Assembly: GCA_043755055.1 (NCBI GenBank)
Contig: JAYUTQ010000780.1
Span: 1 to 32,095, forward strand
Origin: Chitinophagaceae bacterium
GTDB lineage: Bacteria > Bacteroidota > Bacteroidia > Chitinophagales > Chitinophagaceae
DNA length: 32,095 nt
Reading direction: 5' to 3'
Each line of letters opens with the position of its first letter. Position 1 is the stretch's first letter. A program made the translations under genes and the position numbers. Below are positions 172 through 24,681 of this stretch, piece after piece. The notes beneath the pieces are model-generated. The model saw only the letters and a program-made list of their open reading frames with translations. It searched no databases and had not been told where the DNA came from.

Positions 172-244
<73 letters not shown>

Positions 245-253
245 CACCACTTT

Positions 254-291
254 CCCCAAATCCTTTACCAGTAAGGTTTTGGGGATTTTTT
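254..291 (+). terminator. Intrinsic terminator after tRNA-Ala
   Basis: The inverted repeat CCCCAAA ... TTTGGGG encloses an inner CCTTTACCAGTAAGG hairpin and is followed by ATTTTTT. Confidence 0.6.
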
Positions 292-298
292 ATAATTC

Positions 299-322
299 TA
301 CAGACAAAACTACAGACAAAAC
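299..322 (+). repeat. Exact tandem 12-mer TACAGACAAAAC x2 between the tRNA terminator and the integrase start
   Basis: Read directly at 299-310 and 311-322. The position at the att-proximal junction suggests a recombinase or accessory-factor binding site, but this function is inferred only. Confidence 0.5.
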
Positions 323-326
323 CACC

Positions 327-1487
327 ATGGACGGCGGCCTCTACAAATTAGCCAAAATCTACAACGCCGGTGGCGATTTACAAAAACAGTGGTTTGTATA
401 TTTTTATCAGCGTAAAACTTTAAGTGAAAATTTTGTTCGTCAAAGATTATATGCCAACATCAATCAGTACAGGGAAAAGAAGGACAGAATGGAAATGGCC
501 AGACTGCTCCGGGACACTGTAAACACTTGTTTAAAAAGGGGTGATTTGTGGGCTTCTGATGAGCCGGACGAACAACAGGAAATTGATGGCCGCTATTATA
601 ACTGCATAGCAGCTTTACGTGAGGTAGTTAAAAACAAAACAGATCTAAGAAAAAAATCTGGTGCCACTTATTCCAGCATTGTAAACCTATTTGCCAAATA
701 TTGTAAAAAAACAGGCATTGATGTTTTGCCGGTTACATTCATTAAAGGCATTCATATACAACGGTATCAAACTACCATGGTTGCTGATGGTTTGTCACCC
801 ACTACAATAAATAACCGTATCAGGGACCTGGGCAATTTATTTAGTAAGCTGTGTAAATTAGATATTATACCAAAAAATCCCTGTGATGCTGTTGATAATT
901 TAAAACAAATTGAGAGTACTGTTTTTGAACCTTATACGGCTGAAGAATTGACCACAATAGCAGAGCATTTAAAACAACATGACCCTGAGTTATTTTTATT
1001 TTGGTTGCACATATATTACTGTTTTATGCGGCCTGCCACCATTGTAAAAATGAGGGGTTCGGATTATGATTTCGTCAATAAGAAAATACGAATAGCCGCT
1101 GTTGACCACAAAAACAATAAGAGTGCTACAAAGCAAATGATGCTGCCACTTTTTGAATATTTACTTGCATTTGGTGTAGATAAAATTGCACCGGGTACTT
1201 ATTTATTTGCTTCAAACTTAAAGCCTGGGCCAAAGCCCGGACATCCCAATAGAGCAGCTGAAAGATGGAGACAGCAAATAATTATTGGGCTTGGTATTGA
1301 TAAAAAATTGTATGCCGCTAAACATACCGGCGGTATTGATTACATAAATGCAAACTCCGGAGTTGAAGATATTAATTGGCTACAGCAGCAAATGAGCCAC
1401 CATAGTTTGAGTGAAACTCAAACCTATATTAAAAACCGCCAAACAAAAATGTTGGATGAAACAAAAGCCAACATCAAGAAAATTTAA
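327..1487 (+). CDS. int: Tyrosine recombinase / phage integrase
   Basis: The N-terminus KIYNAGGDLQKQWFVYFY is the arm-binding motif typical of Bacteroidota integrases. The C-terminal catalytic region carries FMRPATI (R), AAKHTGG (H) and SETQTYIKN (Y). The gene is adjacent to a tRNA. I prefer the start at Met17 (327) because the longer ORF from 279 overlaps the tRNA terminator. Confidence 0.9.
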   Translation: MDGGLYKLAKIYNAGGDLQKQWFVYFYQRKTLSENFVRQRLYANINQYREKKDRMEMARLLRDTVNTCLKRGDLWASDEPDEQQEIDGRYYNCIAALREVVKNKTDLRKKSGATYSSIVNLFAKYCKKTGIDVLPVTFIKGIHIQRYQTTMVADGLSPTTINNRIRDLGNLFSKLCKLDIIPKNPCDAVDNLKQIESTVFEPYTAEELTTIAEHLKQHDPELFLFWLHIYYCFMRPATIVKMRGSDYDFVNKKIRIAAVDHKNNKSATKQMMLPLFEYLLAFGVDKIAPGTYLFASNLKPGPKPGHPNRAAERWRQQIIIGLGIDKKLYAAKHTGGIDYINANSGVEDINWLQQQMSHHSLSETQTYIKNRQTKMLDETKANIKKI

Positions 1488-2210: not shown

Positions 2211-2245
2211 CAAAAAAATAACCCACATTACGAGTGTGGGTTATT
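2211..2245 (-). terminator. Intrinsic terminator ending the long minus-strand operon
   Basis: An 11-bp stem AATAACCCACA/TGTGGGTTATT with a 7-nt loop is followed on the minus strand by TTTTTTT. It lies about 60 nt after the last minus-strand CDS. Confidence 0.75.
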
Positions 2246-2304: not shown

Positions 2305-2556
2305 TTAATTGTACACATCACCCCGGGGACCAACTTTAACTATGTCTACAACTACTTCTTCTTCGTACACATCATACAAAATTCTGTAAGAACCAACCCT
2401 GTATTTAAACCCTGCATCGTGGTTGGTAAGTGGTTCGCCTATTGTCGGATCATTGCCAATATTAATAATTGCACGCCTTATTCGCAGAGCGGTTGGCCGG
2501 TCCAGGCGTTTAATGTATTTTTCTGCATCACGCTTGATACTGAGTGTGTAGGGCAT
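2305..2556 (-). CDS. RelE/ParE-family type II toxin
   Basis: 83 aa. It has the family pattern ...KYIKRL...I...I..L..DP..GEPL.....G.YKYRVGSYRILYDV.EEEVVV.IVKVGPRGDVY and is coupled with a 3-nt gap to an upstream small ORF. Confidence 0.8.
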   Translation of the reverse strand: MPYTLSIKRDAEKYIKRLDRPTALRIRRAIINIGNDPTIGEPLTNHDAGFKYRVGSYRILYDVYEEEVVVDIVKVGPRGDVYN

Positions 2557-2559
2557 GTG

Positions 2560-2760
2560 TTATTCTTTAAATCCAAATTTTTTATCAATTCTTTTTTTTG
2601 CTTCCTCCCATGGAACACTAACGCCTTTTCTGGCTTGTTCCATTTCGGCTGCATCAATTAAATCTTCCAAATATTTTGCATGGTGTTTCATGCTTAATGT
2701 GGCATGTGTAACCTTACCGCTGTTATTTTTTATCAGTTTAACCCCTGCTATCCTTGCCAT
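2560..2760 (-). CDS. Putative antitoxin partner of the RelE/ParE toxin
   Basis: 66 aa counted from Met14 of the tracked ORF; the longer form would overlap the upstream CDS. It lies directly upstream of the toxin. I do not recognise the family. Confidence 0.6.
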   Translation of the reverse strand: MARIAGVKLIKNNSGKVTHATLSMKHHAKYLEDLIDAAEMEQARKGVSVPWEEAKKRIDKKFGFKE

Positions 2761-2770
2761 AATGTAAATT

Positions 2771-3751
2771 TTAATAAGCAAATCTACTACTTTTCCCAAA
2801 TGCTAAAAAGTGGATCATGGCCGGTTTTTGTTTAACAGCAGCATCAATAGCAGCTTTCATTGTTCGGCCACGGTATATCACATCATCAATGATCAGGATT
2901 CTTTTATCCTTCACCTCAGGGGTACAAGTAGCGTTGTGATTACTGAGCAGTTCCCGGAAAGGAATTTTATTTTTAGTGGCCACTCCCTTGGCCAAAGCTT
3001 TTGCTAAATCAAATGGGGAATCCCGGCCGTTTACAGATGTAACATAATCGTATTGGTTTGTTTTAACCTGGTCGGCCAATAAAACGATCATGCGGAATAA
3101 GGAAACCTTATCATCATAAAATTTGGCACTAATAACCAAGCGACCGGTAATATTAGGTTCACCGGCACCACCAGTAAACTTACCGGTATTTTTACCACGG
3201 TATACATCGCAAGGTAATAGGTAAACATGCTCTTTTATAATTTCCTGAATCCCTGCAAGCCTCACCTGCTGCAGGTAATCTTCCTCAATGTCGTACTGTG
3301 CAAAAATCATTTGTTTGAGTTTGCACAGATTAATAACATCCTCTCTGTTGTACTGCAGCACTAAACTTCTAACATGCGGCTTTCTCCAATCCTGGAAGAT
3401 GGAAAAGATATTGGCTTTGTATTCCATCCGGGATCGGTTAACATGATACAATTTTTCGATGGTGGCCAGCTTGTAGTTTTTTAAACCGGGCAAGGAATCT
3501 TTAAATACTTTTAAAAGGTTCACACAGTGGTAATTGCTCCGGATATCAATCCCAAAATATTTTTCAACAATCCCAATGTCCGGACCATAGAAATAGATAA
3601 TCCCTGTTGTGCCTTGCAACAGGGATTCAAAGTTTTCTGCAGTAAGTGAATCTTCATACATCTGGCCAAACACTTTTGAAGTCCGGCACCAGCCCAGGAG
3701 AAAGATATCGCCACCGATAAACCATTCAGCATCTAAATAGAGGTCAGCCAT
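2771..3751 (-). CDS. Fusion protein: RNase-H-like (YprB/PolB-exo-type) 3'-5' exonuclease domain plus ComF-type phosphoribosyltransferase domain
   Basis: The N-terminus has LYLDAEW (the DxE exo I motif), IIYFYGPDIG, and YNREDVINL near the end of the domain. The C-terminus has the PRPP-binding loop RILIIDDVIYRGRTMKAAIDA, preceded by a ComF-like DYVTSV...DLAKALAKGV segment. Confidence 0.65.
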   Translation of the reverse strand: MADLYLDAEWFIGGDIFLLGWCRTSKVFGQMYEDSLTAENFESLLQGTTGIIYFYGPDIGIVEKYFGIDIRSNYHCVNLLKVFKDSLPGLKNYKLATIEKLYHVNRSRMEYKANIFSIFQDWRKPHVRSLVLQYNREDVINLCKLKQMIFAQYDIEEDYLQQVRLAGIQEIIKEHVYLLPCDVYRGKNTGKFTGGAGEPNITGRLVISAKFYDDKVSLFRMIVLLADQVKTNQYDYVTSVNGRDSPFDLAKALAKGVATKNKIPFRELLSNHNATCTPEVKDKRILIIDDVIYRGRTMKAAIDAAVKQKPAMIHFLAFGKSSRFAY

Positions 3752-3765: not shown

Positions 3766-6700
3766 TTAGTTGTAAAAAACATTTGGTACCTCATACCATA
3801 ATCCATTTACCTTATCGTTCACAAACCGGATAGGAACGCCCACTGCTCTGCTAACAGTAATCAAAGGGGTAAGTTTGGCTCCGCTATTTGTAATGAATCC
3901 ATCTTCGGTTGGTACAAGCACGATGCTTACCCCATTTCTATGCTTGTATTGAGCAAACAGGTTGAAGTCCATTGACAAGTTAACCAGGTAATTGCTGAAT
4001 CGTATTTCATCGATGGTAGTGGCGCCTATTGTGTATTCATCAGCCACACCGCCATCTATGTACAATATGCGTCCTGAACCGGCAGAAGGAATACCCATAG
4101 CTGTTCTGTTAATGACCGCCACGGGATATGCTTGTGGTAGTGCCAAAGTGAATCCGGCATTGTAGGTAACAATATTAGGGTATCTGCCACGCTTGATGCT
4201 TATGTCCATTGGAATATCATTCACTATACCAAGTCCATCGTTATGGGTAGCTTTTAAACCGCTTCTTGTAAATTTGATGGCATTTCTGGCTATTATTCTT
4301 TCACCTGCTGAAAGCGCCCCTAAATTCACACTACTTAATACAGCAGTATCTAAGAAAGTCACATCAGTTAAAGGTAAATTAACAGCCGGTGATCCCTGAT
4401 CATAGAAAAGCTGTAAACCAACTTCTGAATCTTTGATAAGAACTTTGCCGCCATTTACAAACAGTAAACCATTGCTGTTTGTTACTACAATATCACTTGT
4501 TGGTCTTGTTATTGGATAATCAAAGAAACACTTGTTTATCTCTATTTTGTTTTGTGACAAACTCATGTTCCTGAGTGTACAATTTTCTATTTTGCCACCA
4601 ATAAACGGAAAGCCTGTTAACGTTTTACAGTTTTTAATTGAACCACTAATAGCGAAGTCATTAACAAAGTCACCGGCATTATCTATATCAACAGCACCTT
4701 GACATTGATAGTAGATTTGATATTCGGTGAAGAAACCTGTACCTCTTACAGCTTTACCTCGGGTTTTAGGTTGTGGTGAATCTTTGATAGTAAACAATCC
4801 ACCCTTGTTAGTAGTTCCATCACTGATCCTGAATACATCAGGACATTCTTCCACTATGAATCTTTCAAACTTAGTGTTTAGATTATTGTGATTGTATATA
4901 GGGTGACCTTTAGCACCTTGACCTGCTTCTCTAAAAGTAGCATTGATAGTCACATCACATAATTCATTCAAACATGCTTCCGTGATTGGATATGTCACAC
5001 CACCAATGGCAGCTGTTGTATTCCACTGACCTACTTTTATCTTCCTGTTATTCTGAAAATCAGTTAGCATTACATAGTCAATACGAGAGTACAATCTTAC
5101 TGTCTTGCCAATATAATGGTGCATCTCATCCAACGTCCGTTGAGTAGCAGATATAGGAACGGTTACAGTTGGTGAACCGTTAGTTACAGACACTCCACCG
5201 GAGGCTGGTTCGGCATCAAGATACAACTCGGTAAGTTTTTCACCCGGGTCAAACCACATCTTAGCATTAGCTTTTGTAACATCAGCATAGTTGGTTGACA
5301 ATGTTACTATGTAGTTATTTCCAGATATAACGATATTGCTTATGGTATGGGTGTTACGCTTTTTAATCTCAATTGGCGTGTTGAACACATTTATAGTGGA
5401 CTTGTAGAAATGATTATTGAATAAGAATGGTGAGTATTCTTTCTCAACTATTTCAAGGAAGTATTCAGCTCCTGTTTTGGTGTACGTACCGGTAAAATCT
5501 CTGTAGTGAACTATGGCTCCACCGGTTAACTTACTATCGATAACGTGAAACTCTTTACCACATATTTTAGAAGGATCACCATACAGTTCTGAATGCTTAA
5601 TCTCAAAACCAGCACATTCCAGCATACAATTTTTGAAATAGATACCTGCATGCATAAGAACTCTGTTGTGCCACAACTTAGGATTAAGGTTAGTTCCGTT
5701 AAAGAACATATAGTAGCATTTTTTTGCAGCATCCATGTAAACATCATTCTCTACATAAGTAGCTCCTGCATCATAAATTCCTCTGTATGTGAACCCGGTA
5801 ACAGCATCAAAGTCATGCGTGTAAACATCTCCATAGTTACTACGAAAAGGGGCCACATTTCTGTCAGGACAGTCAATATTTATATCAGCGTAGACTTTTT
5901 GACCGTGTCTTGTTGGTGTTATGTATGCGTTATTACCTATATCTCTAAAACAATCATAAGGTTGACTTACAGACAAATCTCTCGGAAATCTAACTGTAAA
6001 GTCTTTGAAGTATTTGATTGTTTCCGTGTTAAGAATGGGCTCACAGAAAAACAATACGCAATGAAATACGTGTATTCCAGGTGATGATTGTGGGTTATAT
6101 ACACCAACTCTATTCGGAACAGCATAATGAACACTAAGTATTGACTTGCCTTTACCCCGACCCCGTAAACCCACATTCTTACTAAACCAGAACGGGCTTT
6201 TTTCAACGGTGTTCGGTAGTGTTCCAAATGCAGGTTTAGCAGCCCATGTCGTTGAATGAAATGGCATAACACCTAAAGTACCGGCAGGAAGTAAAGGACT
6301 GTCTTTATTATTGTCTTCACAATGTTTGATTGCTTTAGCGATGCCGTCTGTAGCATCCCTAAACACCACTGCATTTGGTACAGGGTTGCCTCCCGAAAAT
6401 AAACCGGTTGTATCATTCAGAACTCCACGAGCTGTATCCAAGTTAACAATCGTTGCTACACCACTATTGATTGCAGTTATCTTGCAATTAAGACCTACCG
6501 GCATAGTGTTATAAGCAGTCCAAAGTCTGGCGCCTTCGATAACCATTGTTCGTCCTACATCGGAAGTTTTAAATGCAACCGAAGTTGGACCACTCACTCT
6601 TGTTTGATAGAAGATAGTGTCGTTTATTAATCCTAATTCATTAGAAACCCGATAACCATCTCCTACGTGTGCAGTGTACACCACTCCTATACGCACCCAA

Positions 6701-7251
6701 ACACCACCACGAAACTGTTCTACTATATCACCAACCAAAGGAACGGGCGTTGCTGTTGGGTGCATTTGAATAATGTTTGTGGCATTTCCATCTGCGCCTG
6801 TTGTAGCCTGAGAGCCAATGATACCATTACCCCAATATCTATATAAGTTTGAACTACTGAAACCGTTCCATCCAGTAACGATGCCTTTTAAACCTATACC
6901 TTTCTTTGTAGCTGTACCAGCTGCAGCATTTACATCAACAGTGATGTTTTCCAAATCTCCTATGGCGCCAAAGTAAGCTGCTTCAATATCACCTGCGTAC
7001 ACCCTTTCAAAAGCACCAGCCGCTACACCTACAATGGTAGGTTTTATGTTCATACCCGCGTTATCAGCAAGGTTGTTTAACGGGTTGTAATAAAAGGTGC
7101 CGCCACCGCCATCAGACGGAGTAAAGTAACCTAATACATCAACCGTTTTATTATTGATCGGAGTTAAATCTGTATATGCTTTTAATGCGGCTATGTTTTG
7201 AAAAACAATACCACTATTACCAGGTTTAGAAAATGTTGAGAATGAGGACAT
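3766..7251 (-). CDS. Large receptor-binding spike/fibre protein, probably right-handed beta-helix (pectate-lyase-like)
   Basis: 1161 aa. The sequence is Gly/Asn/Thr/Val-rich and beta-strand dominated. The N-terminal region (YFGAIGDLEN...) resembles the start of pectate-lyase-3-type tailspikes. It is the last large gene of the late module. Confidence 0.6.
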   Translation of the reverse strand: MSSFSTFSKPGNSGIVFQNIAALKAYTDLTPINNKTVDVLGYFTPSDGGGGTFYYNPLNNLADNAGMNIKPTIVGVAAGAFERVYAGDIEAAYFGAIGDLENITVDVNAAAGTATKKGIGLKGIVTGWNGFSSSNLYRYWGNGIIGSQATTGADGNATNIIQMHPTATPVPLVGDIVEQFRGGVWVRIGVVYTAHVGDGYRVSNELGLINDTIFYQTRVSGPTSVAFKTSDVGRTMVIEGARLWTAYNTMPVGLNCKITAINSGVATIVNLDTARGVLNDTTGLFSGGNPVPNAVVFRDATDGIAKAIKHCEDNNKDSPLLPAGTLGVMPFHSTTWAAKPAFGTLPNTVEKSPFWFSKNVGLRGRGKGKSILSVHYAVPNRVGVYNPQSSPGIHVFHCVLFFCEPILNTETIKYFKDFTVRFPRDLSVSQPYDCFRDIGNNAYITPTRHGQKVYADINIDCPDRNVAPFRSNYGDVYTHDFDAVTGFTYRGIYDAGATYVENDVYMDAAKKCYYMFFNGTNLNPKLWHNRVLMHAGIYFKNCMLECAGFEIKHSELYGDPSKICGKEFHVIDSKLTGGAIVHYRDFTGTYTKTGAEYFLEIVEKEYSPFLFNNHFYKSTINVFNTPIEIKKRNTHTISNIVISGNNYIVTLSTNYADVTKANAKMWFDPGEKLTELYLDAEPASGGVSVTNGSPTVTVPISATQRTLDEMHHYIGKTVRLYSRIDYVMLTDFQNNRKIKVGQWNTTAAIGGVTYPITEACLNELCDVTINATFREAGQGAKGHPIYNHNNLNTKFERFIVEECPDVFRISDGTTNKGGLFTIKDSPQPKTRGKAVRGTGFFTEYQIYYQCQGAVDIDNAGDFVNDFAISGSIKNCKTLTGFPFIGGKIENCTLRNMSLSQNKIEINKCFFDYPITRPTSDIVVTNSNGLLFVNGGKVLIKDSEVGLQLFYDQGSPAVNLPLTDVTFLDTAVLSSVNLGALSAGERIIARNAIKFTRSGLKATHNDGLGIVNDIPMDISIKRGRYPNIVTYNAGFTLALPQAYPVAVINRTAMGIPSAGSGRILYIDGGVADEYTIGATTIDEIRFSNYLVNLSMDFNLFAQYKHRNGVSIVLVPTEDGFITNSGAKLTPLITVSRAVGVPIRFVNDKVNGLWYEVPNVFYN

Positions 7252-7277: not shown

Positions 7278-8702
7278 TTAGCTACAAGCTGCGCAATCCA
7301 AAACAATAGAGAAGTTGCCAGCTGCGGTAATGGCAAAGTTTACAAACGTATAGGTCTGGATGTATTGTGGATCCGGACTATGGTTGATACAAGTAGTAAC
7401 TCCGTTGCTGTCGGTTACCCGGATTGAACCTGCATCGCCATAGACCTGAACCATTAATAACCCGACACCTACCGGTGCCCTACTTGTATTTTGTTGGCCG
7501 CTGGACAATGAGAACGGATGACCGCCTAAGACAATGACCGATTGCGCCCTGAATGCAACATCAATAATTTCGCCGCTGGTTACACAATTCAGGGTTTGTA
7601 TGATACCGCTTTGATGTGTTATAGGGCTGAAAGTAAAATTCCCTTCACCTGAATCCCCTATGCCGCCACCGGCGCAAACAGGATCTATGCGGAAAGTATG
7701 GAGATAACTGTCAGCCGCTCCGGATATTAAATAGCTAAGTGTGTTTACCTGCAGCCGGAATGTATTGTCAATATAAATATTGAATGCAACAGCACCGGTG
7801 CCCTCCCAGGTTAATAACACATCGTTACCCTGTTGAGTAGTAGCTACATTGAAAACGACAGCACTGCAAGCCGGTGGATCCGGAATAAAACTCCATTCCC
7901 CATTGATGCTGGTGCCCGGACCATTGGCGCACTTTGAAAGAATTGTGTACACATGCTGCAGGCCATCGACACCGTTTACTTTAAGATAAGTGGATCCAAT
8001 GGTATTTGTAATAAATGCGCCGTCAATAAATACATCATAGCTAACTGCACCGCTACCCGTCCAGGCAATTAATACATCGTTTCCTTGCCTTGTAGCAGTG
8101 CTCTGGCTTACGGTTGCAGCACAAGGAACGCAATACTGAAATGTGCCATTTAAAGAAGTACCACCAATACCGTTACTGCATTTAGCTACAATCAGGTAGG
8201 TATGTAAGCTGCAATCAGCACCATTCAAAACCTTAAATACATTACTTACTGCCTGAGCGGATGAATTCCCAAAAAAAATGCCATCAATAAATAAATCTGC
8301 AGTAACACCTGCAAGTACACCAAGTGTATAAGAAATCAGTACATCGTTATTATCCCGGGCTGTGTTTGCAGTTAAAACTACGCCCGTACATACACCGCTA
8401 TTGTCGAAACTGAATGCACCGCTGCGGGCCGTGCCTGCCACACCATTTAAACATCTTGGAACAATGTTATAAGTGTGTGCTCCGGGAGATGGACCTGAAA
8501 TATTGAAAAATGTATTTGTAGTGTTAATCTGAAATGCACCGTCAATAAACACATCGTAAGAAACAGCACCGGTGGCCACCCAACTAATTATAATATTGAT
8601 GCCGGCTTGTATGTAAGACGAACCGGAAACAACAGCATTGCAAACAGGTGTGGATGCAGCGCAACAGATATTATTGAAGAAATTATTTTGTGTGCTGTCC
8701 AT
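7278..8702 (-). CDS. Virion-associated protein with four tandem Cys-framed Ig/FN3-like repeats
   Basis: There are four units of about 90 aa with the pattern C..VV......GNDVLI.W.G.GAVSYDVFIDGAF....HTY.I...C.NG.G....G.F.F. The matching DNA repeats are visible around 8020-8060 and 8535-8575. Confidence 0.6.
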   Translation of the reverse strand: MDSTQNNFFNNICCAASTPVCNAVVSGSSYIQAGINIIISWVATGAVSYDVFIDGAFQINTTNTFFNISGPSPGAHTYNIVPRCLNGVAGTARSGAFSFDNSGVCTGVVLTANTARDNNDVLISYTLGVLAGVTADLFIDGIFFGNSSAQAVSNVFKVLNGADCSLHTYLIVAKCSNGIGGTSLNGTFQYCVPCAATVSQSTATRQGNDVLIAWTGSGAVSYDVFIDGAFITNTIGSTYLKVNGVDGLQHVYTILSKCANGPGTSINGEWSFIPDPPACSAVVFNVATTQQGNDVLLTWEGTGAVAFNIYIDNTFRLQVNTLSYLISGAADSYLHTFRIDPVCAGGGIGDSGEGNFTFSPITHQSGIIQTLNCVTSGEIIDVAFRAQSVIVLGGHPFSLSSGQQNTSRAPVGVGLLMVQVYGDAGSIRVTDSNGVTTCINHSPDPQYIQTYTFVNFAITAAGNFSIVLDCAACS

Positions 8703-8717
8703 CCTGAAGAGTGTGAA

Positions 8718-9269
8718 TTATGGTTTTGTAATAGCAATTTTTATTGTGCCATTTAAAGCCTGAAAAAAGAAACTTTTATTGAGGAGTGTTGTGGCTGTCC
8801 ATCCATCACTTTCACCAACCACGATAGGTATTGCAGTTGCACCGTCAATACTTAAAGTACCACCTTGCCCATCAGTTACTTTATAGCTAATGCTATGAAC
8901 TGTATTGGCAGCAATGTTTACAGAATCATCAGCTGTTAAAAAGATAAACTGAGGTGTGTTGTAATTAGCTCCACCACTACCGCCACCACCAATGGCATCT
9001 GCCAGTTCATCAATATTGCAAATCTGAACAATTTGTTTATTGATTGCCACCACCTGCAGGGCTTTTTGTGGTGTGCCAATATTAACACCTGCACAATCCT
9101 TTGGCTGAAATGTGGTGCTTACCCCACAGATGTCTACTTTAAGCACATTGGGGTCAAGGTCCCCGCATTGTGCATATAGTTTATCTTTAATTTCTTCCAG
9201 CAGCTCCCTGCTACTTGCTAAAGCATAATCGCCGCTATCGTAAGGTTTTACCCGTCCTGTTTTGTACAT
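8718..9269 (-). CDS. Hypothetical virion protein (beta-rich, GGGGSGG linker)
   Basis: 183-aa ORF, co-oriented and tightly spaced within the late module. Confidence 0.6.
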   Translation of the reverse strand: MYKTGRVKPYDSGDYALASSRELLEEIKDKLYAQCGDLDPNVLKVDICGVSTTFQPKDCAGVNIGTPQKALQVVAINKQIVQICNIDELADAIGGGGSGGANYNTPQFIFLTADDSVNIAANTVHSISYKVTDGQGGTLSIDGATAIPIVVGESDGWTATTLLNKSFFFQALNGTIKIAITKP

Positions 9270-9314
9270 GTTCTAAGAATTTAGTATTAAGTATTTAGTA
9301 CAGAGACTAGATGC

Positions 9315-9749
9315 TTAACTGATTTTATTTAAAGAGAACTGTACTTGAACAGCGGTGTCGTATTCGTTCTGGCTTAGTTTATGGCCATCTAAATATTTGG
9401 TAATAAGTGCGGCAAGTTTAATTAGCAATGCATCTGCTACATGCGGGTACTTTGATTTAAGGTATACTTTGAGGCAGGCCAGTTTTTCTTCTATTGAACT
9501 CTCCTGATTGCAGTTTTTAAAACCTTCAAGCAGCGGTATTGCATAATTCAGAGCATCAATAAGCCTTGCTTTTACAATGTCGTCTACACTACCCGGGATG
9601 ATGACAGTGAGAATATCTCCAAGCGGAGATTGTAAAAACTTTTTGATGCCACCGGTTACATTTAATGCAAGTGCTGCATTTTCTAAAACTGCTTCACCAA
9701 TACGGCGAATCAGCTGTTTAATTTTGGAACGAAATTTTGAACAAAACAT
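9315..9749 (-). CDS. Hypothetical protein (helical)
   Basis: 144-aa ORF in the late module, preceded by the conserved AAATCATACATCATAAATCA leader. Confidence 0.6.
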   Translation of the reverse strand: MFCSKFRSKIKQLIRRIGEAVLENAALALNVTGGIKKFLQSPLGDILTVIIPGSVDDIVKARLIDALNYAIPLLEGFKNCNQESSIEEKLACLKVYLKSKYPHVADALLIKLAALITKYLDGHKLSQNEYDTAVQVQFSLNKIS

Positions 9750-9816
9750 GGTGTGGGATTTTTTGATTTATGAAGTGTGATTTATGATGTATGATTTTTC
9801 TTTTTGAACTTTTTAA

Positions 9817-10503
9817 TTAAAAAAAAAAGCCTGCAGCAGCTGCTGCACCAAAGAACCATTTGAACACTGGTTTGGAGGTAATTACTGCTGCTGAATTTTT
9901 TACGATTGTTGCTAACTTATCTGTCCAGCGAATACGATCGGGCATTCCATTTGGCGTGTATTTTTTATTTACGCTGGCAGGTCCACCATTAACAGTTTTA
10001 GAAATAGAAAGGGTGTCGTCTTTATCAGCATAGAAATTGGGTTGGCCATCAGGAAAGGCAGTTTTTCGGTTACAGTTGTACCACCACCATGCAGCAACAA
10101 TTACAGCATTATACATAGATGTAATTACAAGGTCCGGATTTGTCAACAATCTATTATCACCATACAAACCTTTAGAAGCAGCTGCATAATTACTTTTACC
10201 AGTCAATTGAATAAGGCCACGACCGCGAAATTTATAACCATCACCCGGCGCAGTATTACCCAAATTTTTACCTGTTGATGTTTGATAACCGTATTTTTTC
10301 TCACAATAAGCGGAGCCACCTCTTTCACTTAAAATGGTAAGTCCACCTGTTTCATGCAGGCATTGCCCCATAAAATGTTTGAAGCGCAGCGGTGTATTAA
10401 TCTTGTATTTATCAGCAGCTACTTTAAAAGCTTCAACTACTTCACTACTTTGTTGAGGGGTAAGCTTAAGCCCGAGTGTTTGTATATTTTGTACAGATAA
10501 CAT
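9817..10503 (-). CDS. Glycoside hydrolase family 19 (chitinase-like) lysin with a C-terminal hydrophobic anchor
   Basis: GH19 signature motifs are present: FMGQCLHETGG and YKFRGRGLIQLTGKSNY. The C-terminus PVFKWFFGAAAAAGFFF is hydrophobic. Confidence 0.85.
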   Translation of the reverse strand: MLSVQNIQTLGLKLTPQQSSEVVEAFKVAADKYKINTPLRFKHFMGQCLHETGGLTILSERGGSAYCEKKYGYQTSTGKNLGNTAPGDGYKFRGRGLIQLTGKSNYAAASKGLYGDNRLLTNPDLVITSMYNAVIVAAWWWYNCNRKTAFPDGQPNFYADKDDTLSISKTVNGGPASVNKKYTPNGMPDRIRWTDKLATIVKNSAAVITSKPVFKWFFGAAAAAGFFF

Positions 10504-10528
10504 GGTTAACTATTTTTTGCATGGTTGA

Positions 10529-10918
10529 TTAATTTTCTAATCTGGGGCCACCACGAGGGCTTAGAAAGCTTCTGGTAATCTCAAGCCTGTTATCTGGCGC
10601 CTGCGGATTATTGGGGTCGTAAGGGTCGTTTGGCAGGCTAGGATCACGGCCGGGTAACAATGCATTGTCGTAGATGGCGCTCACTCTGTCAAATTCAATA
10701 TTCCAAACTGTGTCTATAGCTACACGCGGATCATTCATGCCACTGCTAAACCATTCACCCGGACGCAATATTTTGGTTCTCATTACGGTGCAGTTGGTAT
10801 TGCCCCGATTGTACATCATGTACCCATGGCATCCCTGAGCACCCCAGCTGCAGTCTTTATCTATAATCTCTACCGTTTCTGTCATGGAAAGTGAATTCCA
10901 TTCTTTTGGGTCGAACAT
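10529..10918 (-). CDS. Hypothetical protein
   Basis: 129-aa ORF separated by a 3-nt gap from the upstream gene. Confidence 0.6.
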   Translation of the reverse strand: MFDPKEWNSLSMTETVEIIDKDCSWGAQGCHGYMMYNRGNTNCTVMRTKILRPGEWFSSGMNDPRVAIDTVWNIEFDRVSAIYDNALLPGRDPSLPNDPYDPNNPQAPDNRLEITRSFLSPRGGPRLEN

Positions 10919-10921
10919 GAG

Positions 10922-11878
10922 TTACATTATTTTATATAGAATAAAACCACCGGCCGCTACTGCTGCCAGTGTAGTTAATTTATCAATGGTGGATTTGCTT
11001 TCTTCTGTGGTTAAAGTGGTAATAACCTTGTTGTTAGTTGCAGTATTTTTAATTGCTTGCTGCTGAATTAAGTCTCTGGTTTCTTTAGAAATTTTGCCCG
11101 CCTGAAAATCTTTATCAGCTTGTGCTATGGCATCCAGATTCCTAATCTGTGCATCAAATAGCATTTGTTTGGTTTTTACCTTGGAAATTCCATCAACAAT
11201 AATGGCCGTAACACCAAGAGCGGCAACAATGGCAATTACTGCCCACACAACTATAGGTATAACACCGATGCCACTAATTGTGCTGGTTTTAAATTCTTTC
11301 AGCTGTACCGTTACCCCGGGTATCTGTTTTATTTCAAGGACAGAAAAATTATACATGGCAACAGCATCTACAAATTTTTTTCTCATATCTGCATCCATGG
11401 GCTTTTTGCTCATAACAACGAGTAAGTCAAAAGTTTTTCTTGCTTTTGCATTTAGCAGATCGCATTCTGTTTGCAATTGTTTTTGTTTGTTGATACTTGC
11501 AGCTTCGCTTTCTTTAATTCCTCTAAATTGTAGCAACATTTTGTCAGGATAGTATTTGAAATACCTTGTCTTACCGTTAACAGTTGCATACATGTTCATG
11601 CCTACTTTGGCAGCTATAGCCCTGGCTTTGGTTACGTTTTGCAGTTGCTCTAATGCTTCTAAAAATATTTCTGCAGGATAGCACCCAACAATAACCGGTG
11701 TACTTTTGGGATCATAGTATTTTGGTTTCTTATCGTAATCGAGATTTGCAACGGTTTCGGCAATAGAGTTAAAATACCGGATCGGTGTGGTGTATTTGCT
11801 AATAGAAAAATCCACCAGTTTGATTTTGTCAACGGGTGTAGTTTTATTCCAATTTGATGTTATTACTTCGCCTATCAT
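10922..11878 (-). CDS. Membrane protein (central and C-terminal TM segments, coiled-coil stretch)
   Basis: 318 aa. The hydrophobic segments are GIGVIPIVVWAVIAIVAALGVTAIIV and LAAVAAGGFILY. Confidence 0.65.
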   Translation of the reverse strand: MIGEVITSNWNKTTPVDKIKLVDFSISKYTTPIRYFNSIAETVANLDYDKKPKYYDPKSTPVIVGCYPAEIFLEALEQLQNVTKARAIAAKVGMNMYATVNGKTRYFKYYPDKMLLQFRGIKESEAASINKQKQLQTECDLLNAKARKTFDLLVVMSKKPMDADMRKKFVDAVAMYNFSVLEIKQIPGVTVQLKEFKTSTISGIGVIPIVVWAVIAIVAALGVTAIIVDGISKVKTKQMLFDAQIRNLDAIAQADKDFQAGKISKETRDLIQQQAIKNTATNNKVITTLTTEESKSTIDKLTTLAAVAAGGFILYKIM

Positions 11879-11935
11879 GTATTAAGTGTTTAGCCCCCGC
11901 CGTAGCCGGTGGCGGAATTGGAAGACATAATTTAA

Positions 11936-12121
11936 TTAAGCAGGGATTTTAAGAGCTGTACAGCCAAACTTCCATTTGATCGGATTATTTTCTTTCAGGT
12001 CTGCAAGCTTTTCTAATTGTACAACTACGTTCTGATTGTTTTTGCAAAGCATGTCTATTGCTTTCCAAATACGTTCCTGTGATGGCTGATCCAGGTTGTT
12101 GAAGTTTGTAAGTGCTTCCAT
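11936..12121 (-). CDS. Small hypothetical protein sharing a motif with the C-terminus of the upstream scaffold-like protein
   Basis: 61 aa. NQNVVVQLEKLADLKENNP in this protein matches NPNVVEEIEMLAKLKANNP in 12162-12968. Confidence 0.5.
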   Translation of the reverse strand: MEALTNFNNLDQPSQERIWKAIDMLCKNNQNVVVQLEKLADLKENNPIKWKFGCTALKIPA

Positions 12122-12161
12122 GATTTACTTGTATTTTTTGACCCTATTTAGAGATAATAGG

Positions 12162-12968
12162 TTAATCGTTCATGCCTTTAATAAAATCCAAGCCCTGTGC
12201 ATACATATCAGGATTATTGGCTTTAAGTTTTGCTAACATTTCTATTTCTTCTACCACGTTAGGATTGTCTTTGCTAAGCCCTTCAATGGCACTTTCAAAA
12301 CGTTGTTGCTCATTGTCGGCCGTGTTGCCGATTTGCTGGGTTTCAGTTCCTCCAGTTCCACTTCTGGAGCTGCTTGCATTACCGCCCATCAGGCCACCTA
12401 TTACATTTATTACTTCGACAGCTTCAGGCATTTTTTTTACCATTGGCCACAGAGTTGTACCAAGCCCTAAAATGCCATTTCTAAATACATTGTCGTTTGC
12501 TGATTTTTCGGCCTCCAGTGTTTTGATCTTTTCTTTCAAATCTTCCAGTTCTTTTGCTTTTCGCTCTTCTTCCTGGAATTTTTTTATTTTGGTTTCAATG
12601 GCCGTTTCAAAGTTCTCTGGTGTAACTTGGCCAATGCCCTCCATATAAAAACCGGATACTGCAGTACCACTAATGGCAGGTGTTTTGTTTTGAGCAAAAT
12701 CACTCATTTCAATATCAATATCCACATCCGGACGGGTACTCCCTTTTTTGCGCATCGCACAAAAAACATACCGTCCGGGTGTAAGCCTGTCTAATCCATT
12801 CATCAGCTGATCAATGCTTGCATCAAGGCTAAGATCATCGCCACCATACACCTCAATAGCCGGGCTACCAGCTTTGCGTTTGATGTCGGTATCGAATATT
12901 TTCCACCATCTTGCATCTGCATTACGCACTACATAGATGATATTCTCTTTACCTCTTATTGCGCCCAT
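12162..12968 (-). CDS. Acidic coiled-coil protein, scaffold-like
   Basis: 268 aa. The central segment KKFQEEERKAKELEDLKEKIKTLEAEK looks like a coiled coil, followed by a Gly/Ser-rich linker. It lies next to the capsid candidates. The function is inferred. Confidence 0.55.
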   Translation of the reverse strand: MGAIRGKENIIYVVRNADARWWKIFDTDIKRKAGSPAIEVYGGDDLSLDASIDQLMNGLDRLTPGRYVFCAMRKKGSTRPDVDIDIEMSDFAQNKTPAISGTAVSGFYMEGIGQVTPENFETAIETKIKKFQEEERKAKELEDLKEKIKTLEAEKSANDNVFRNGILGLGTTLWPMVKKMPEAVEVINVIGGLMGGNASSSRSGTGGTETQQIGNTADNEQQRFESAIEGLSKDNPNVVEEIEMLAKLKANNPDMYAQGLDFIKGMND

Positions 12969-13006
12969 TTTCTCTGATTTTTGATTTATGATGTATGATT
13001 TCTGAT

Positions 13007-13034
13007 GCCGCTGTCCCTTGAAGGGGTAAAAGAA
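13007..13034. repeat. Intergenic hairpin repeat family, copy A (variant CCCTTGAAGGGG)
   Basis: GCCGCTGTCCCTTGAAGGGGTAAAAGAA. It lies between CDS 12162-12968 and CDS 13040-13444. Confidence 0.7.
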
Positions 13035-13039
13035 ATGGT

Positions 13040-13444
13040 TTACTCAAAGAAAATTGTGATCACAAACACCATCCCATTTGTAATGCCAGTAGCGTCGCCC
13101 AATTCAATAAAACTTTTCCGCAGGTCAATATCCAGGTTGTTCAGTTCCAGGAATGAAATGCCGTTTGTATTACTGATTATTTCTAAAGGCAGCCGGCGTA
13201 TGATCTGTTCACCTGCCATTGTTGAAAGTGTTAGGAATGACTTTTTAACGGCTGCATCCGGAACAACCTGATCACCGTCAAAACTTGCTGTAAGAGCCTG
13301 TGAATGGATTAATAGCCCTTTGAATTTTTTACCATTCAAAGTAGTCTCATTATCTGTAAACTTAAATTGGCGGCTATTTACATTGTTCACCACAACTTTT
13401 ACCGTTTCGCTTTTAGAAATGGGGTAGGAGAGTTTTGCAATCAT
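13040..13444 (-). CDS. Beta-rich 134-aa virion protein (small capsid-protein candidate)
   Basis: ORF flanked by the hairpin repeats, with a beta-strand-like alternating pattern that ends in MVFVITIFFE. The capsid assignment is inferred. Confidence 0.55.
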   Translation of the reverse strand: MIAKLSYPISKSETVKVVVNNVNSRQFKFTDNETTLNGKKFKGLLIHSQALTASFDGDQVVPDAAVKKSFLTLSTMAGEQIIRRLPLEIISNTNGISFLELNNLDIDLRKSFIELGDATGITNGMVFVITIFFE

Positions 13445-13460
13445 GATGCTTAATTTTTTT

Positions 13461-13491
13461 GTTGCCTCTATCCCCTAAAGGGGAAATAATC
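13461..13491. repeat. Intergenic hairpin repeat family, copy B
   Basis: GTTGCCTCTATCCCCTAAAGGGGAAATAATC. Confidence 0.8.
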
Positions 13492-13505
13492 TGCAACGGC
13501 GTTTT

Positions 13506-13533
13506 AAAAATCCCCCGCCCCGGAGGGCGGGGG
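13506..13533 (-). terminator. GC-rich intrinsic terminator/attenuator between the 272-aa and 134-aa genes
   Basis: On the minus strand the hairpin CCCCCGCCC-TCCG-GGGCGGGGG is followed by ATTTTT. Confidence 0.6.
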
Positions 13534-13550
13534 TGAGTGTGAAATGTGTT

Positions 13551-13583
13551 GTTGGCCCCTGTCCCCTAAAGGGGTAAAAGAAC
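13551..13583. repeat. Intergenic hairpin repeat family, copy C
   Basis: GTTGGCCCCTGTCCCCTAAAGGGGTAAAAGAAC. Confidence 0.8.
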
Positions 13584-13610
13584 AAACAACGGCTTTGGTT
13601 TTGTGTGGGT

Positions 13611-13641
13611 GTTGCCCCTGTCCCCTAAAGGGGAAAAGAAC
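13611..13641. repeat. Intergenic hairpin repeat family, copy D
   Basis: GTTGCCCCTGTCCCCTAAAGGGGAAAAGAAC. It abuts the stop codon of 13642-14460. Confidence 0.8.
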
Positions 13642-14460
13642 TTACTTGCCGGTAATATGCAAACCACGTAGTATTAATACTGCACGGTGTTCGGTTCCTG
13701 CTACTGCACTGGCACCAGCCCAACCGGTAAAAGTTGCAAACTTTAAATTGATGTCGTTGGTACCGCTGCCATGGATAGTGATGTTTGGCGTAAGCATTGC
13801 AAAACCAGCATTTTCATGCTGCTGGTCGTAATTGGTGATGGCTGTTTTTTGTACTTGTGGTACATGCAGGAAACGGTGGGTGTCGTAGGCAATTAACTGC
13901 TGTACACGGTCAATCGTAATGCTCAATTCACCTGCTGTGTAAATGCTCCGCAAATCGTCGGCTGCTGTTTGCCCGAATGTGAACACGTTCGGATATGAAA
14001 ATAGTTCACCATTTGTTTTGCCGTTTGCAATATCCTGCTTTAACAATTTCAATGCTATTTTGTCGATAACAAAACTGTCGTTCTTGTCAAGCCTGCGTTC
14101 TGTAGGATATACGGAAGCTCCGTCGCCATCAAAGGTTTTGAATGTAAGTACCGCTTTGGGCCCGGTGATGACAGCTTCCAGCCTGAGGTAACCTTGTACA
14201 ACCGTTCTTTCCGGAAATTTGCTTTGGTTATTGATGAAAGTTGCACGGTCTCTTTCGCTTGAAATTACCTGTACTGCAGGTTGGCCATCCGGACCTACTA
14301 CGCCTACATAAACTCCAAGGATGTTTTGTGGTAATTCCACAAATTGTGTAGCGTATGTAAGTGCGCCCCCTAAGAAAGCTGCTGCAGGTACATTTTTGCT
14401 GATAAGGAAAGCAGTGACAAATAATGCCAGAAACGTTCCAATTAATTTAAGATGCTTCAT
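13642..14460 (-). CDS. Beta-rich 272-aa virion protein with hydrophobic N-terminus (major capsid-protein candidate)
   Basis: The ORF is bracketed by repeat hairpins and followed by an attenuator, an arrangement typical of a highly expressed structural gene. The N-terminus LIGTFLALFVTAFLI is hydrophobic. I cannot assign a fold by eye. Confidence 0.55.
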   Translation of the reverse strand: MKHLKLIGTFLALFVTAFLISKNVPAAAFLGGALTYATQFVELPQNILGVYVGVVGPDGQPAVQVISSERDRATFINNQSKFPERTVVQGYLRLEAVITGPKAVLTFKTFDGDGASVYPTERRLDKNDSFVIDKIALKLLKQDIANGKTNGELFSYPNVFTFGQTAADDLRSIYTAGELSITIDRVQQLIAYDTHRFLHVPQVQKTAITNYDQQHENAGFAMLTPNITIHGSGTNDINLKFATFTGWAGASAVAGTEHRAVLILRGLHITGK

Positions 14461-14490
14461 TGTTGTGTGTTGTAATGTGAAATGATAATT

Positions 14491-14538
14491 GTTAGCCCCT
14501 GTCCCCTTCCCGAAATAATCGGGATAAAAAAGGGGTAT
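14491..14538. repeat. Intergenic hairpin repeat family, copy E (variant with an inserted inner hairpin)
   Basis: GTTAGCCCCTGTCCCC-TTCCCGAAATAATCGGGATAAAAAA-GGGGTATG. Confidence 0.65.
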
Positions 14539-14553
14539 GTTAATAAACGGTTT

Positions 14554-14575
14554 GTACCCCTAAAGGGGTAAAAGC
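14554..14575. repeat. Intergenic hairpin repeat family, copy F (short)
   Basis: GTACCCCTAAAGGGGTAAAAGC. It abuts the stop codon of 14576-14947. Confidence 0.75.
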
Positions 14576-14947
14576 TTAGTTATCCATGCCACTAATGGCC
14601 GGAGCATTCATAAGGTCTTCCTGTGCGGCGTAGCTGATGTGATCCATGCCATCACTACCAATACCGGAAAGGCCGGGTACACCGAATGCACCCGCCAGGC
14701 CGGTGGCACTTTCTGCCAGTATGCCATTGGCTACATCGTTTATGATAGTTGCTTTCTTACCGCTGCCACCTCCTGCTATAGCAGGAAGAAAGACACCAAT
14801 ACCCAACCTGATTAAAGCACTTGTTTTGGGGTTTACTTTGTTGGCCAATGTTTTGGCTACAAACTTGGAAGCTGCAACACCTGCTACTAGCCCTGCGGCT
14901 TGCATACCACGTTCGCTGATTTGTTTGAAATTAAATTTACTTGCCAT
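14576..14947 (-). CDS. Gly/Ala-rich small membrane protein
   Basis: 123 aa counted from Met18 of the tracked ORF. The hydrophobic stretches are AAGLVAGVAA and LIRLGIGVFLPAIAGGG. Confidence 0.6.
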   Translation of the reverse strand: MASKFNFKQISERGMQAAGLVAGVAASKFVAKTLANKVNPKTSALIRLGIGVFLPAIAGGGSGKKATIINDVANGILAESATGLAGAFGVPGLSGIGSDGMDHISYAAQEDLMNAPAISGMDN

Positions 14948-15049
14948 TTGTTTTTTTGTTGGTGGCTTGTTTCGTGTTACAGGTGATAACACCAGCAACG
15001 GCGTTTACATGCCGGGTGTGAATGAATTTTTTTTGAGCGTTTCGGGGTA

Positions 15050-15081
15050 GCTGCCCCTATCCCCTAAAGGGGGAAATAAGC
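15050..15081. repeat. Intergenic hairpin repeat family, copy G
   Basis: GCTGCCCCTATCCCCTAAAGGGGGAAATAAGC. Confidence 0.8.
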
Positions 15082-15098
15082 ATTGCTACCCCCACTGC

Positions 15099-15299: not shown

Positions 15300-15371
15300 G
15301 ATTGTAATGGGTTTTTGTGTGTGATGAGAAATAGTTGATTAGTAAATTGGTTGAATAGTTGATTTTATTTA

Positions 15372-23748: not shown

Positions 23749-23761
23749 TCGTTTTTAAATT

Positions 23762-23965: not shown

Positions 23966-23995
23966 AAAATCAGATGATGATTTTTGATGTATGAT

Positions 23996-24544: not shown

Positions 24545-24583
24545 ATGTTTTTCATTTTTTTGGCGAAATGGGTGGTATTGTAC

Positions 24584-24632: not shown

Positions 24633-24681
24633 CAGGTTTTAACTAGAAAGTATCCATATTTGTAGTTACCAATTTTTACCC

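Follow-up and report, generated by a model that had tools for sequence, protein, structure and literature searches.

Organization of the Locus

The DNA analysed here is a stretch of 32,095 nucleotides from a Chitinophagaceae bacterium (contig JAYUTQ010000780.1), referred to throughout as the window. It carries a gene for a 326-residue protein in which a predicted 3'-5' exonuclease is fused to a phosphoribosyltransferase (PRT) domain. The fusion gene occupies positions 2771–3751 on the minus strand (ATG start, stop codon included) and was defined from the list of open reading frames (ORFs), Pfam, homologues, and an AlphaFold2 (AF2) model. Its G+C content of about 0.40 is the same as that of its surroundings. 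Related loci that were compared with the window carry labels of the form L001.

The ATG of the fusion gene starts 14 nt past the stop codon of an ORF for a protein of 1161 residues (3766–7251, minus strand), which has no family match and was called a spike in the initial annotation of the stretch. On the other side, the ATG of a 66-residue antitoxin candidate (MARIAGVKL...; 2560–2760, minus strand) is found 10 nt past the fusion stop codon. The mechanical ORF list runs this ORF back to a TTG at 2799; the ATG at 2760 is used here. The gene for an 83-residue toxin of the ParE/RelE superfamily (2305–2556, minus strand) starts 3 nt past the antitoxin stop codon, and an intrinsic-terminator-like hairpin with an 11-bp stem and a T-run (2217–2245, minus strand) closes the fusion-antitoxin-toxin unit. 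About 700 nt of non-coding DNA separate this hairpin from a tyrosine integrase gene (279–1487, plus strand; PF00589 at 8.4e-8), and a tRNA-Ala gene (172–245, plus strand) lies beyond it toward position 1. Together, the integrase and the tRNA mark the end of an integrated element, and the fusion is situated near the integrase end, as the initial annotation had placed it.

The Exonuclease Domain

The N-terminal domain comprises residues 1–165 (3257–3751, minus strand), as delimited by conservation, AF2, Foldseek, and profile matches to the PDB. The Pfam family RNase_H_2 (PF13482) matches residues 14–148 with 38.1 bits against a cut-off of 22 (E = 1.9e-9). Two motifs quoted in the initial annotation, LYLDAEW (residues 4–10; 3722–3742, minus strand) and YNREDVINL (residues 134–142; 3326–3352, minus strand), are present in the fusion ORF where it had located them. 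In an alignment of 27 homologues, Asp-7, Glu-9, Asp-58, Tyr-134, Asn-135, and Asp-138 are invariant. Among 36 diverse fusion and solo sequences, Glu-9, Tyr-134, and Asp-138 remain invariant, and Asp-7, Asp-58, and Asn-135 are conserved in at least 90%. Asp-7 and Glu-9 correspond to the DxE of motif Exo I, Asp-58 (in the sequence GPD) to the aspartate of Exo II, and Tyr-134 and Asp-138 to the Yx3D of Exo III. The conservation of Asp-7, Glu-9, Asp-58, Tyr-134, and Asp-138 thus constitutes a DEDDy signature.

The AF2 model of the isolated domain has a predicted local distance difference test (pLDDT) score of 95.8. Its Foldseek matches in the PDB include the exonuclease domain of Escherichia coli Pol II, Rrp6, NrnC (template modeling (TM) score ~0.7), and the WRN exonuclease, with TMq values of 0.6–0.74. 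In a profile search of the PDB, a reconstructed "diDNase" ancestor (8e-6) comes closest among solved proteins, along with NrnC and MrfB/YprB (0.01). NrnC, the Pol II (PolB) proofreading domain, and MrfB/YprB have the fold (TM ~0.6–0.7) and the DEDDy constellation in common with the N-terminal domain of the fusion, and NrnC is similar to it in its compact size (~165 residues). In contrast, sequence identity to these proteins is merely 12–17%, and none of the three carries a PRT domain. DEDDy 3'-5' exonucleases take nucleotides off free 3'-OH ends of DNA, RNA, and short oligonucleotides and release 5'-mononucleotides. With every hallmark of this class present in sequence and model, the N-terminal domain is predicted to act as a metal-dependent DEDDy 3'-5' exonuclease of the type seen in Pol II-exo, NrnC, and YprB.

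The Phosphoribosyltransferase Domain

The C-terminal domain (residues 170–326; 2774–3244, minus strand) consists of a minimal type I PRT domain with an N-terminal hood and was delimited by Foldseek, profile matches to the PDB, and solo homologues. The Pfam family Pribosyltran (PF00156) scores 31.7 bits against a cut-off of 26.3 (E = 1.1e-7), with the aligned part restricted to residues 275–316. Foldseek matches for the domain in the PDB are HGPRT, PyrR, PurF, and Prs (E about 3e-5 to 4e-4, probability 1.0, 110–190 columns). When a profile of the solo PRT family is used, the best PDB match is PyrR, with 2.7e-11 over about 107 profile positions across the PRT core. The AF2 model of the full-length fusion has a mean pLDDT of 85.4 and a predicted TM score (pTM) of 0.52.

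The canonical loop that binds 5-phosphoribosyl-1-pyrophosphate (PRPP) contains two acidic residues followed by ..[TS]G.T. In the fusion, this loop is ILIIDDVIYRGRT (residues 285–297, with Asp-289 and Asp-290; 2861–2899, minus strand). It is intact, in agreement with the initial annotation, and fusion and solo PRT proteins alike have an invariant DD, G, and T. Members of the fusion clade have a lysine or arginine in place of the canonical threonine or serine (DDVIY[KR]G[TR]T), whereas the solo relatives retain T/S. Judged from sequence and model, the C-terminal domain is a minimal type I PRT domain with an intact PRPP/5'-phosphoribosyl-binding loop and a predicted capacity for binding or transfer, and its family is that of the small PRT proteins which occur solo in integrative, virus-like elements of Bacteroidota of the same class. 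Several proteins with a PRT fold, such as PyrR, PurR, and ComFC, are binders or regulators.

Because both Pfam scores exceed their curated thresholds and 61 homologues were found, the domain assignments are not attributable to chance, and the presence of a DEDD nuclease and a PRTase domain in the 326-residue protein, as first proposed, is upheld. We regard the predicted biochemical identity of the two domains, exonuclease and PRT, as highly probable.

An intact loop would be compatible with nucleotide salvage, in which the exonuclease degrades host nucleic acid and the PRT domain turns free bases and PRPP into nucleotides for replication of the element. Both domains formally make nucleoside monophosphates, the closest solved structures (PyrR, HGPRT, and Prs) are salvage or regulatory PRTases, and slow evolution, as seen for the fusion, is typical of metabolic enzymes. 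However, the domain is far smaller than salvage PRTases, the profiles of these enzymes match it in the loop region only, and all NCBIfam scores are far below their cut-offs. The replacement of the loop T/S by K/R in the fusion clade and the dispensability of the PRT half in some relatives also argue against salvage, and a place behind a terminator beside a toxin-antitoxin (TA) pair and restriction-modification (R-M) cargo would be unusual for a replication-supply gene. Salvage appears quite improbable.

Fused, Solo, and Split Forms

A word-indexed search returned the 61 relatives, of which the full-length ones are 60–92% identical to the fusion; named relatives are from Ferruginibacter, Sphingobacteriales, and Lacibacter. 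When 1.84 billion cluster representatives were searched exhaustively with a profile, 191 proteins were obtained, with P0024 as the sole full-length two-domain representative. The remaining proteins are fragments or solo forms, either of an exonuclease type (~165 residues) or of a PRT type (~145–160 residues). The full fusion is confined to Chitinophagales, where it forms one 50%-identity cluster, and this rarity, one cluster in the 1.84 billion representatives, accords with the initial description of the architecture as uncharacterised. Among 185,579 species genomes (one per species), it occurs in about a dozen metagenome-assembled genomes (MAGs) of Chitinophagales; the fusion of L017 is 94% identical to that of the window. 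Viral collections gave no further members. A scan of IMG/VR with the fusion alignment produced 27 pattern matches, none of which was confirmed, and a scan with the solo-PRT alignment produced distant generic PRTases only, with no exonuclease near them. A tblastn search of 50,697 deposited phages with the fusion, one solo exonuclease, and one solo PRT protein gave nothing useful.

Solo exonucleases are spread over Bacteroidales, Marinilabiliales, Saprospiraceae, and Paludibacteraceae. In two distinct elements, L109 and L111, which were found in a metagenome scan with solo-PRT proteins, both halves are encoded as separate genes adjacent to each other at the element end, in the order C-only (plus strand), N-only (minus strand), integrase (minus strand); L108 is a copy of L109 and was not counted. 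Solo PRT genes without an exonuclease are present in L099–L105, situated between genes for small proteins and genes for lysozyme-like or large repeat proteins. In L014–L016, a conserved gap of 432 nt follows the solo exonuclease gene, and it contains no hidden PRT ORF. A stable shortened form of 196 residues, exonuclease only and 69–73% identical to the N-terminal half of the fusion, is encoded in L007 and L026 (10001–10591) and in L027; L026 is from the cultured Lacibacter cauensis CGMCC 1.7271, which makes a test system available that can be grown. Several gene families, including that of a transglutaminase-like large protein, are common to the window and to elements with fused, solo, and split forms. 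The two halves therefore recur as parts of a single broad class of elements in Bacteroidota.

The neighbours of the solo exonucleases fall into different contexts. At least 13 loci, besides the fusion loci, have an N-only homologue near R-M genes of type I or type III, PLD-SNF2 genes, or methyltransferase-HNH genes; in this context a DUF4248-type helix-turn-helix (HTH) gene adjoins the exonuclease gene, and the R-M-type genes follow it. Overall, recognised R-M-type genes lie no more than eight genes away in at least 16 of 67 loci, three fusion loci included. Other N-only homologues adjoin integrase or excisionase genes (L008 and L064) or primase-VapE and DUF4326 genes, which are replication or integration contexts.

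These latter contexts suggest a different role, that of a helper in the DNA metabolism of the element. The exonuclease would process 3' ends during replication, recombination, or integration and excision, the PRT domain would handle single-stranded DNA (ssDNA), and the position beside a defence hotspot would be incidental. The N-only homologues that directly follow an integrase(-excisionase) gene in L008, L064, L109, and L111 are consistent with such a role, as are those near early-type clusters with primase-VapE, DUF3854/DUF5906, or DUF4326 genes. The fusion is highly conserved in fixed synteny, a polymerase proofreading domain and the repair exonuclease MrfB/YprB are among its closest structural relatives, and ComFC, a PRT protein, binds ssDNA (PMC9005727). 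On the other hand, in most relatives a terminator precedes the fusion gene, which sits at the opposite end of the element from ParB and early genes. Its linkage is to a TA pair and not to replication genes, and no polymerase, helicase, or recombinase is conserved as a neighbour. We consider the helper role unlikely.

Two side observations concern the wider family. A distant relative of 431 residues, P0160, has its PRT domain in the middle of the protein and a D...E-x-K pattern (YADVV...IVEAKGG) toward the C terminus; Pfam detects the PRT domain alone. The pattern suggests that the C-terminal region is a PD-(D/E)xK nuclease, in which case a nuclease and a PRT domain may have been fused independently a second time in P0160. 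Separately, L071 and L073–L077 are near-identical gut contigs with a solo exonuclease gene adjoining a DUF4326 gene, and the MAGs that contain them bear the names Firmicutes, Azospirillum, Mycobacteriaceae, Bacteroides, and Prevotella. An abundant free element appears to have been mis-binned here.

A Conserved Flank of a Defence-cargo Hotspot

At every fusion locus, the fusion gene comes after a set of large, fast-diverging proteins. An integrase gene on the opposite strand, beside a tRNA, lies 0.5–4.3 kb downstream of the fusion in all loci with enough sequence except L020. The fusion itself is 64–70% identical between loci, compared with 22–54% for the neighbouring large proteins, and between the window and L017 the fusion is 94% and the neighbours are 43–81% identical. 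The position of the 1161-residue protein of the window is taken in relatives by other large proteins, namely a GDSL-lipase protein of 961 residues and proteins of 729 and 744 residues.

The variable stretch is located between the fusion and the integrase. In the window it contains the TA pair. L017 carries instead a D12-class (Dam-type) adenine methylase, a DndB-like protein, and an Mrr-type nuclease (11096–14506), L024 carries a complete MmeI-family R-M enzyme adjoining a TA pair (11894–14710), many loci carry a DUF6943 gene, and still others have different genes there. The fusion or its shortened form is present in all related loci, and it is better conserved than its neighbours; it is thus the conserved flank of a defence-cargo hotspot and not an occupant. 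The initial annotation had assigned the gene to the classic position for lysogenic-conversion or defence cargo, but the variable defence cargo lies downstream of it, toward the integrase. That the fusion is itself variable cargo (a moron) can be ruled out, as its presence is constant among syntenic relatives while the downstream genes vary.

Neighbour BLAST and all-against-all clustering of the neighbours detected no conserved partner genes besides the TA pair. The DUF6943 gene may be a further recurrent companion. It abuts the integrase gene in convergent orientation, with the ends touching, in seven loci with the fusion or the shortened form (L001, 11617–12024, and six others), and it is also found at most four genes from solo exonuclease genes in L050, L060, and L065.

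The Toxin-Antitoxin Pair and the Transcription Unit

The toxin matches ParE_toxin (PF05016) with 38.4 bits against a cut-off of 23 (E = 1.9e-9) and the PHROGs family phrog_1213, "RelE-like toxin", at 2.2e-21. Its orthologues at five other loci are 44–62% identical and are likewise located downstream of the fusion. The antitoxin candidate has no match in Pfam, NCBIfam, or PADLOC and one weak PHROGs match to a family with no assigned function; orthologues in the same position are present in L018, L022, L024, L107, and L110. The RelE/ParE pair 10 nt downstream of the fusion in the initial annotation is thereby substantiated. Its order, a small antitoxin gene followed by a tightly linked toxin gene of the ParE/RelE superfamily, is that of type II ParDE/RelBE pairs. 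Unlike the described type II pairs, the antitoxin of the window falls outside known families, and the pair is co-inherited with the upstream fusion in a third of the loci.

The same TA family directly follows the fusion in the window and at the five loci just named, that is, in 6 of about 15 distinct loci, with gaps of 2–40 nt (267 nt in L022). On a neighbor-joining tree of the fusion proteins, they occupy scattered positions. The closest TA-bearing fusion loci, L018 and L022, also have the most similar TA proteins, as judged by eye. Since TA similarity tracks the fusion tree, an old linkage that was lost or replaced several times (L017 being one such case) is favoured over a pair that was gained repeatedly.

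A terminator scan of the window detected no terminator-like site between the fusion, antitoxin, and toxin genes and a strong one after the toxin gene. Co-transcription of the fusion with the TA pair, as put forward initially, is plausible from this arrangement and from its occurrence at six independent loci. Upstream of the fusion, a GC-rich, terminator-like hairpin with a T-run ends 10–25 nt before the ATG in 9 of 10 relatives that have an intergenic gap, and its stem shows compensatory changes; the hairpin spacer is missing in the window, L017, L004, and L027. The gene had been described as the last non-TA gene of a late operon, but in these nine relatives the hairpin parts it from the upstream operon. 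By sequence, the fusion unit thus looks like a separate cassette and not simply like the end of a late operon.

The leader was also inspected for promoter and RNA motifs. The Bacteroidetes -7 motif TAnnTTTG is not found upstream of the fusion gene in the window. A sigma-70 scan gave fewer sites than shuffled sequences, and the sigma-70 consensus is not applicable to Bacteroidota. Rfam searches of the window and eight relatives, the conserved leader included, found nothing except tRNAs. An identical 23-mer, TTCTCATAAGCAGTTAGTTTTGG, with the hairpin after it, stands shortly before the fusion ATG in L001 (9927–9990), L007 (9930), and L022 (1465), where the upstream genes differ. It contains the -7-like sequence TAGTTTTG and occurs once per locus. 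Rfam has no family that matches it, and the window lacks it.

Taken further, the linkage could mean that the three genes act as an abortive-infection module in which the fusion is an effector or sensor functionally coupled to the antitoxin-ParE/RelE pair. The TA family right after the fusion, with gaps of 2–40 nt, at six loci across the tree with congruent similarity would fit such a module, as would the strong terminator after the unit and none within it in the window. However, about nine fusion loci have no TA pair, among them the 94%-identical L017 with its R-M-type genes, and solo N-only and C-only proteins are encoded without such a TA neighbour. TA pairs are also common independent residents of such hotspots. 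A three-gene module of this kind is very improbable.

The Host Element

The element around the fusion has few recognizable genes. Ten large ORFs yield PHROGs matches to a ParB-like protein and an XRE-type regulator only, and Pfam adds transglutaminase-like and GH19 lysozyme-like domains. The ParB_N+HTH_ParB protein, which has 651 residues and a Walker A motif, is encoded at 21793–23748, the transglutaminase-like protein (622 residues) at 15372–17240, the GH19 lysozyme-like protein at 9817–10503, and the XRE-type regulator at 30039–30668. Relatives encode GH108 or SLT lysozymes and proteins with weak baseplate-like matches. Neither the 1161-residue protein nor nine other scanned ORFs match a structural or packaging family of PHROGs or Pfam, and no terminase, portal, or major capsid gene was recognised in these two collections when 10 + 10 ORFs were scanned. 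Searches with the large element proteins in PHROGs, Pfam, the PDB, and phage records returned almost nothing, and two of them have no homologue in the 50,697 phage records.

Because no phage hallmark gene was detected, the terms prophage, late operon, and spike are plausible inferences. The end of an integrated element, which the initial annotation had also called, is confirmed by the integrase and tRNA-Ala; its structural labels have no structural or packaging match behind them. From its genes (7278–25749 of the window), the host element may represent a class of virus-like elements in Bacteroidota that has yet to be described, and it may extend past the end of the window. When the window was searched for a copy of the 3' end of the tRNA that could be attR, just a 14-nt chance match resulted.

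Some features of the window lie outside the fusion unit. Between the integrase and the toxin gene, a long imperfect palindrome (about 230 nt) is present twice, at 1555–1800 and 1945–2195, and the first copy folds at -122.6 kcal/mol (z = -7.0). The palindrome is common only to the window and the 94%-related L017 (14691–15094) and has no Rfam family match; the copies might represent a structured element or an insertion of the MITE-like type. At 30000–32095, the G+C content falls to 0.31–0.33, and the plus-strand genes include one for a 138-residue protein followed by an overlapping one for a 158-residue HTH-type protein. These two genes are possibly a further TA-like pair or the edge of the element.

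Comparison with Known PRT Systems

The initial annotation described the PRT domain as ComF-type. Like the fusion, ComFC/GntX has a PRT core that follows a small strand-helix hood, and ComFC partners the nucleic-acid motor ComFA. The hood before the PRT core of the fusion shows a Y-x-G ... K-F pattern that we take to be typical of ComF proteins. Solo relatives all match the ComF model TIGR00201 weakly, with 3.2e-8 as the best value, and their PyrR and Prs matches are as good. Membership of the ComF family was nevertheless ruled out: the fusion scores 14.8 bits (E = 0.02) against a cut-off of 233.55, and it has an exonuclease domain at its N terminus in place of the 4-Cys zinc finger that ComF proteins carry there (PMC9005727). 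In addition, every homologue is situated in an integrative element and none in a competence operon. The PRT domain of ComFC binds PRPP and nucleoside monophosphates, and regulation by nucleotides freed during strand degradation is a speculation of the authors of that work (PMC9005727).

These data also bear on whether the gene could belong to the host, as a ComF-family competence gene that just happens to have an integrated element nearby. The strand-helix hood and the weak TIGR00201 match would be expected of such a gene, but its score is far below the cut-off, the zinc finger is absent, and the fusion occurs in only about a dozen Chitinophagales MAGs among the 185,579 species genomes. In the neighbourhood survey, every homologue lay in an integrative or virus-like element, frequently next to R-M genes; none was a housekeeping ComF gene, the outcome that the initial annotation had named as counting against its proposal. 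The probability of a host competence gene is close to nil.

Defence systems with PRTases were compared next. In PADLOC, the fusion matches ShosT (2.6e-5) and PsyrT (0.027), both through the PRPP loop only; for the solo PRT family, the best values are 1e-11 for ShosT, 6e-12 for PsyrT, and 3e-7 for the retron PRTase III-A. RqlH/PsyrT, the toxin of psyrTA/rqlHI, is a RecQ-like helicase with a C-terminal PRTase. It thus resembles the fusion in combining a nucleic-acid enzyme with a PRT domain at the C terminus in a single polypeptide, but the partner is a helicase and not an exonuclease, PsyrT has a DprA-like antitoxin, and the match covers only about 40 residues. ShosT is also a protein with a PRT fold and is encoded in accessory hotspots of prophages, but unlike ShosT the fusion has an exonuclease domain and no DprA-like ShosA neighbour. 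Toxicity of ShosT depends on PRPP binding (PMC12961424, PMC11961720), and a system of a PRTase and DprA has been reported from a P2 prophage hotspot (PMC9122126). Neighbour clustering and precomputed Pfam annotations revealed no DprA-like neighbour in any locus, and membership of ShosTA/PsyrTA was ruled out on the absence of this partner; the model match is limited to the loop. The initial annotation had also drawn an analogy to the PRTases of retrons. It is not supported, as there is neither a reverse transcriptase (RT) nor a DprA. No RT was found among the annotated neighbours at 13 loci, with not all ORFs of the window scanned, and Rfam found only tRNAs and no msr/msd RNA; on these grounds, retron membership was ruled out.

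The closest literature description, compared by description, is that of a distinct and enigmatic clade of PRTases from invasive elements, which occur solo or within polyvalent proteins (Iyer, Burroughs, Anand, de Souza & Aravind 2017, PMC5512222). As that account presents them, they resemble the fusion in being small type I PRT domains with a DD loop, solo or fused, in (pro)phage-like or integrative elements. They are drawn mainly from Proteobacteria and Verrucomicrobia and from MuF-type polyvalent fusions, and the account of the clade describes no fusion to an RNase-H-fold exonuclease (PMC5512222). The arginine after strand 2 is present in the fusion as Arg-243 (VNGRDS); it is not invariant in the solo family.

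Discussion

The fusion is a real, rare, and uncharacterised two-domain architecture within a known theme, in which PRT domains of mobile elements are associated with nucleic-acid enzymes. As to its role, we tentatively prefer an accessory function in conflict, either between mobile elements or with the host, together with a regulatory coupling of the nuclease and the PRT domain. Drawn from sequence comparison, this reading is plausible while falling somewhat short of probable.

In this scheme, the exonuclease and PRT parts would originally have been separate genes, as they still are in the two elements where they lie adjacent to each other beside the integrase, and a single fusion event would have joined them in a Chitinophagales element lineage. 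The fusion and the ParE/RelE-type TA pair would make up a compact, terminator-bounded unit between the large surface or tail-like genes and the variable defence hotspot next to the integrase. The unit might exclude incoming DNA or act in counter-defence, rather than serve the virion or housekeeping. By analogy to ComFC, RqlH/PsyrT, and ShosT, the PRT domain may be a module that binds PRPP or (deoxy)nucleoside monophosphates or handles single strands. It would then couple the nuclease to nucleotide status, or to the products of the nuclease itself, rather than catalyse salvage.

Several findings weigh against this reading. The constant presence of the fusion and its slower evolution relative to its neighbours fit a core enzymatic function equally, and some N-only homologues occur in replication or integration contexts. 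The orientation of the two domains relative to each other is not confidently predicted (pTM 0.52). The PRT domain has been lost in the relatives with the 196-residue form, so that the coupling of exonuclease and PRT is not obligatory and the PRT half is dispensable there. The matches to defence PRTases, finally, reflect mostly the generic PRPP loop and are marginally better than those to PyrR, Prs, and ComF.

A more specific form of the conflict reading would make the fusion and the TA pair, with their old linkage, a self-contained and previously unrecognised module, in which the PRT domain senses or converts PRPP or the mononucleotides that the exonuclease makes on attacking incoming nucleic acid, and thereby switches the nuclease or the toxin. 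We think this unlikely. If true, it would provide the first mechanistic handle on ComFC/ShosT-like PRT domains that are paired with nucleic-acid enzymes.

The locus also flags a widespread, unannotated class of Bacteroidota integrative elements that have a defence hotspot on the integrase side and no match in the viral collections searched. Domains with a PRT fold recur in systems for DNA uptake and for conflict: in ComFC with the ComFA helicase, in RqlH/PsyrT, in ShosT with a DprA-like protein, in retron effectors, and in polyvalent proteins of phages. The fusion, together with the split halves that neighbour each other, serves as an independent "Rosetta stone" that hints at a connection of this PRT clade with 3'-end processing or nucleotide release, and as a simple two-domain protein it is directly amenable to assay.

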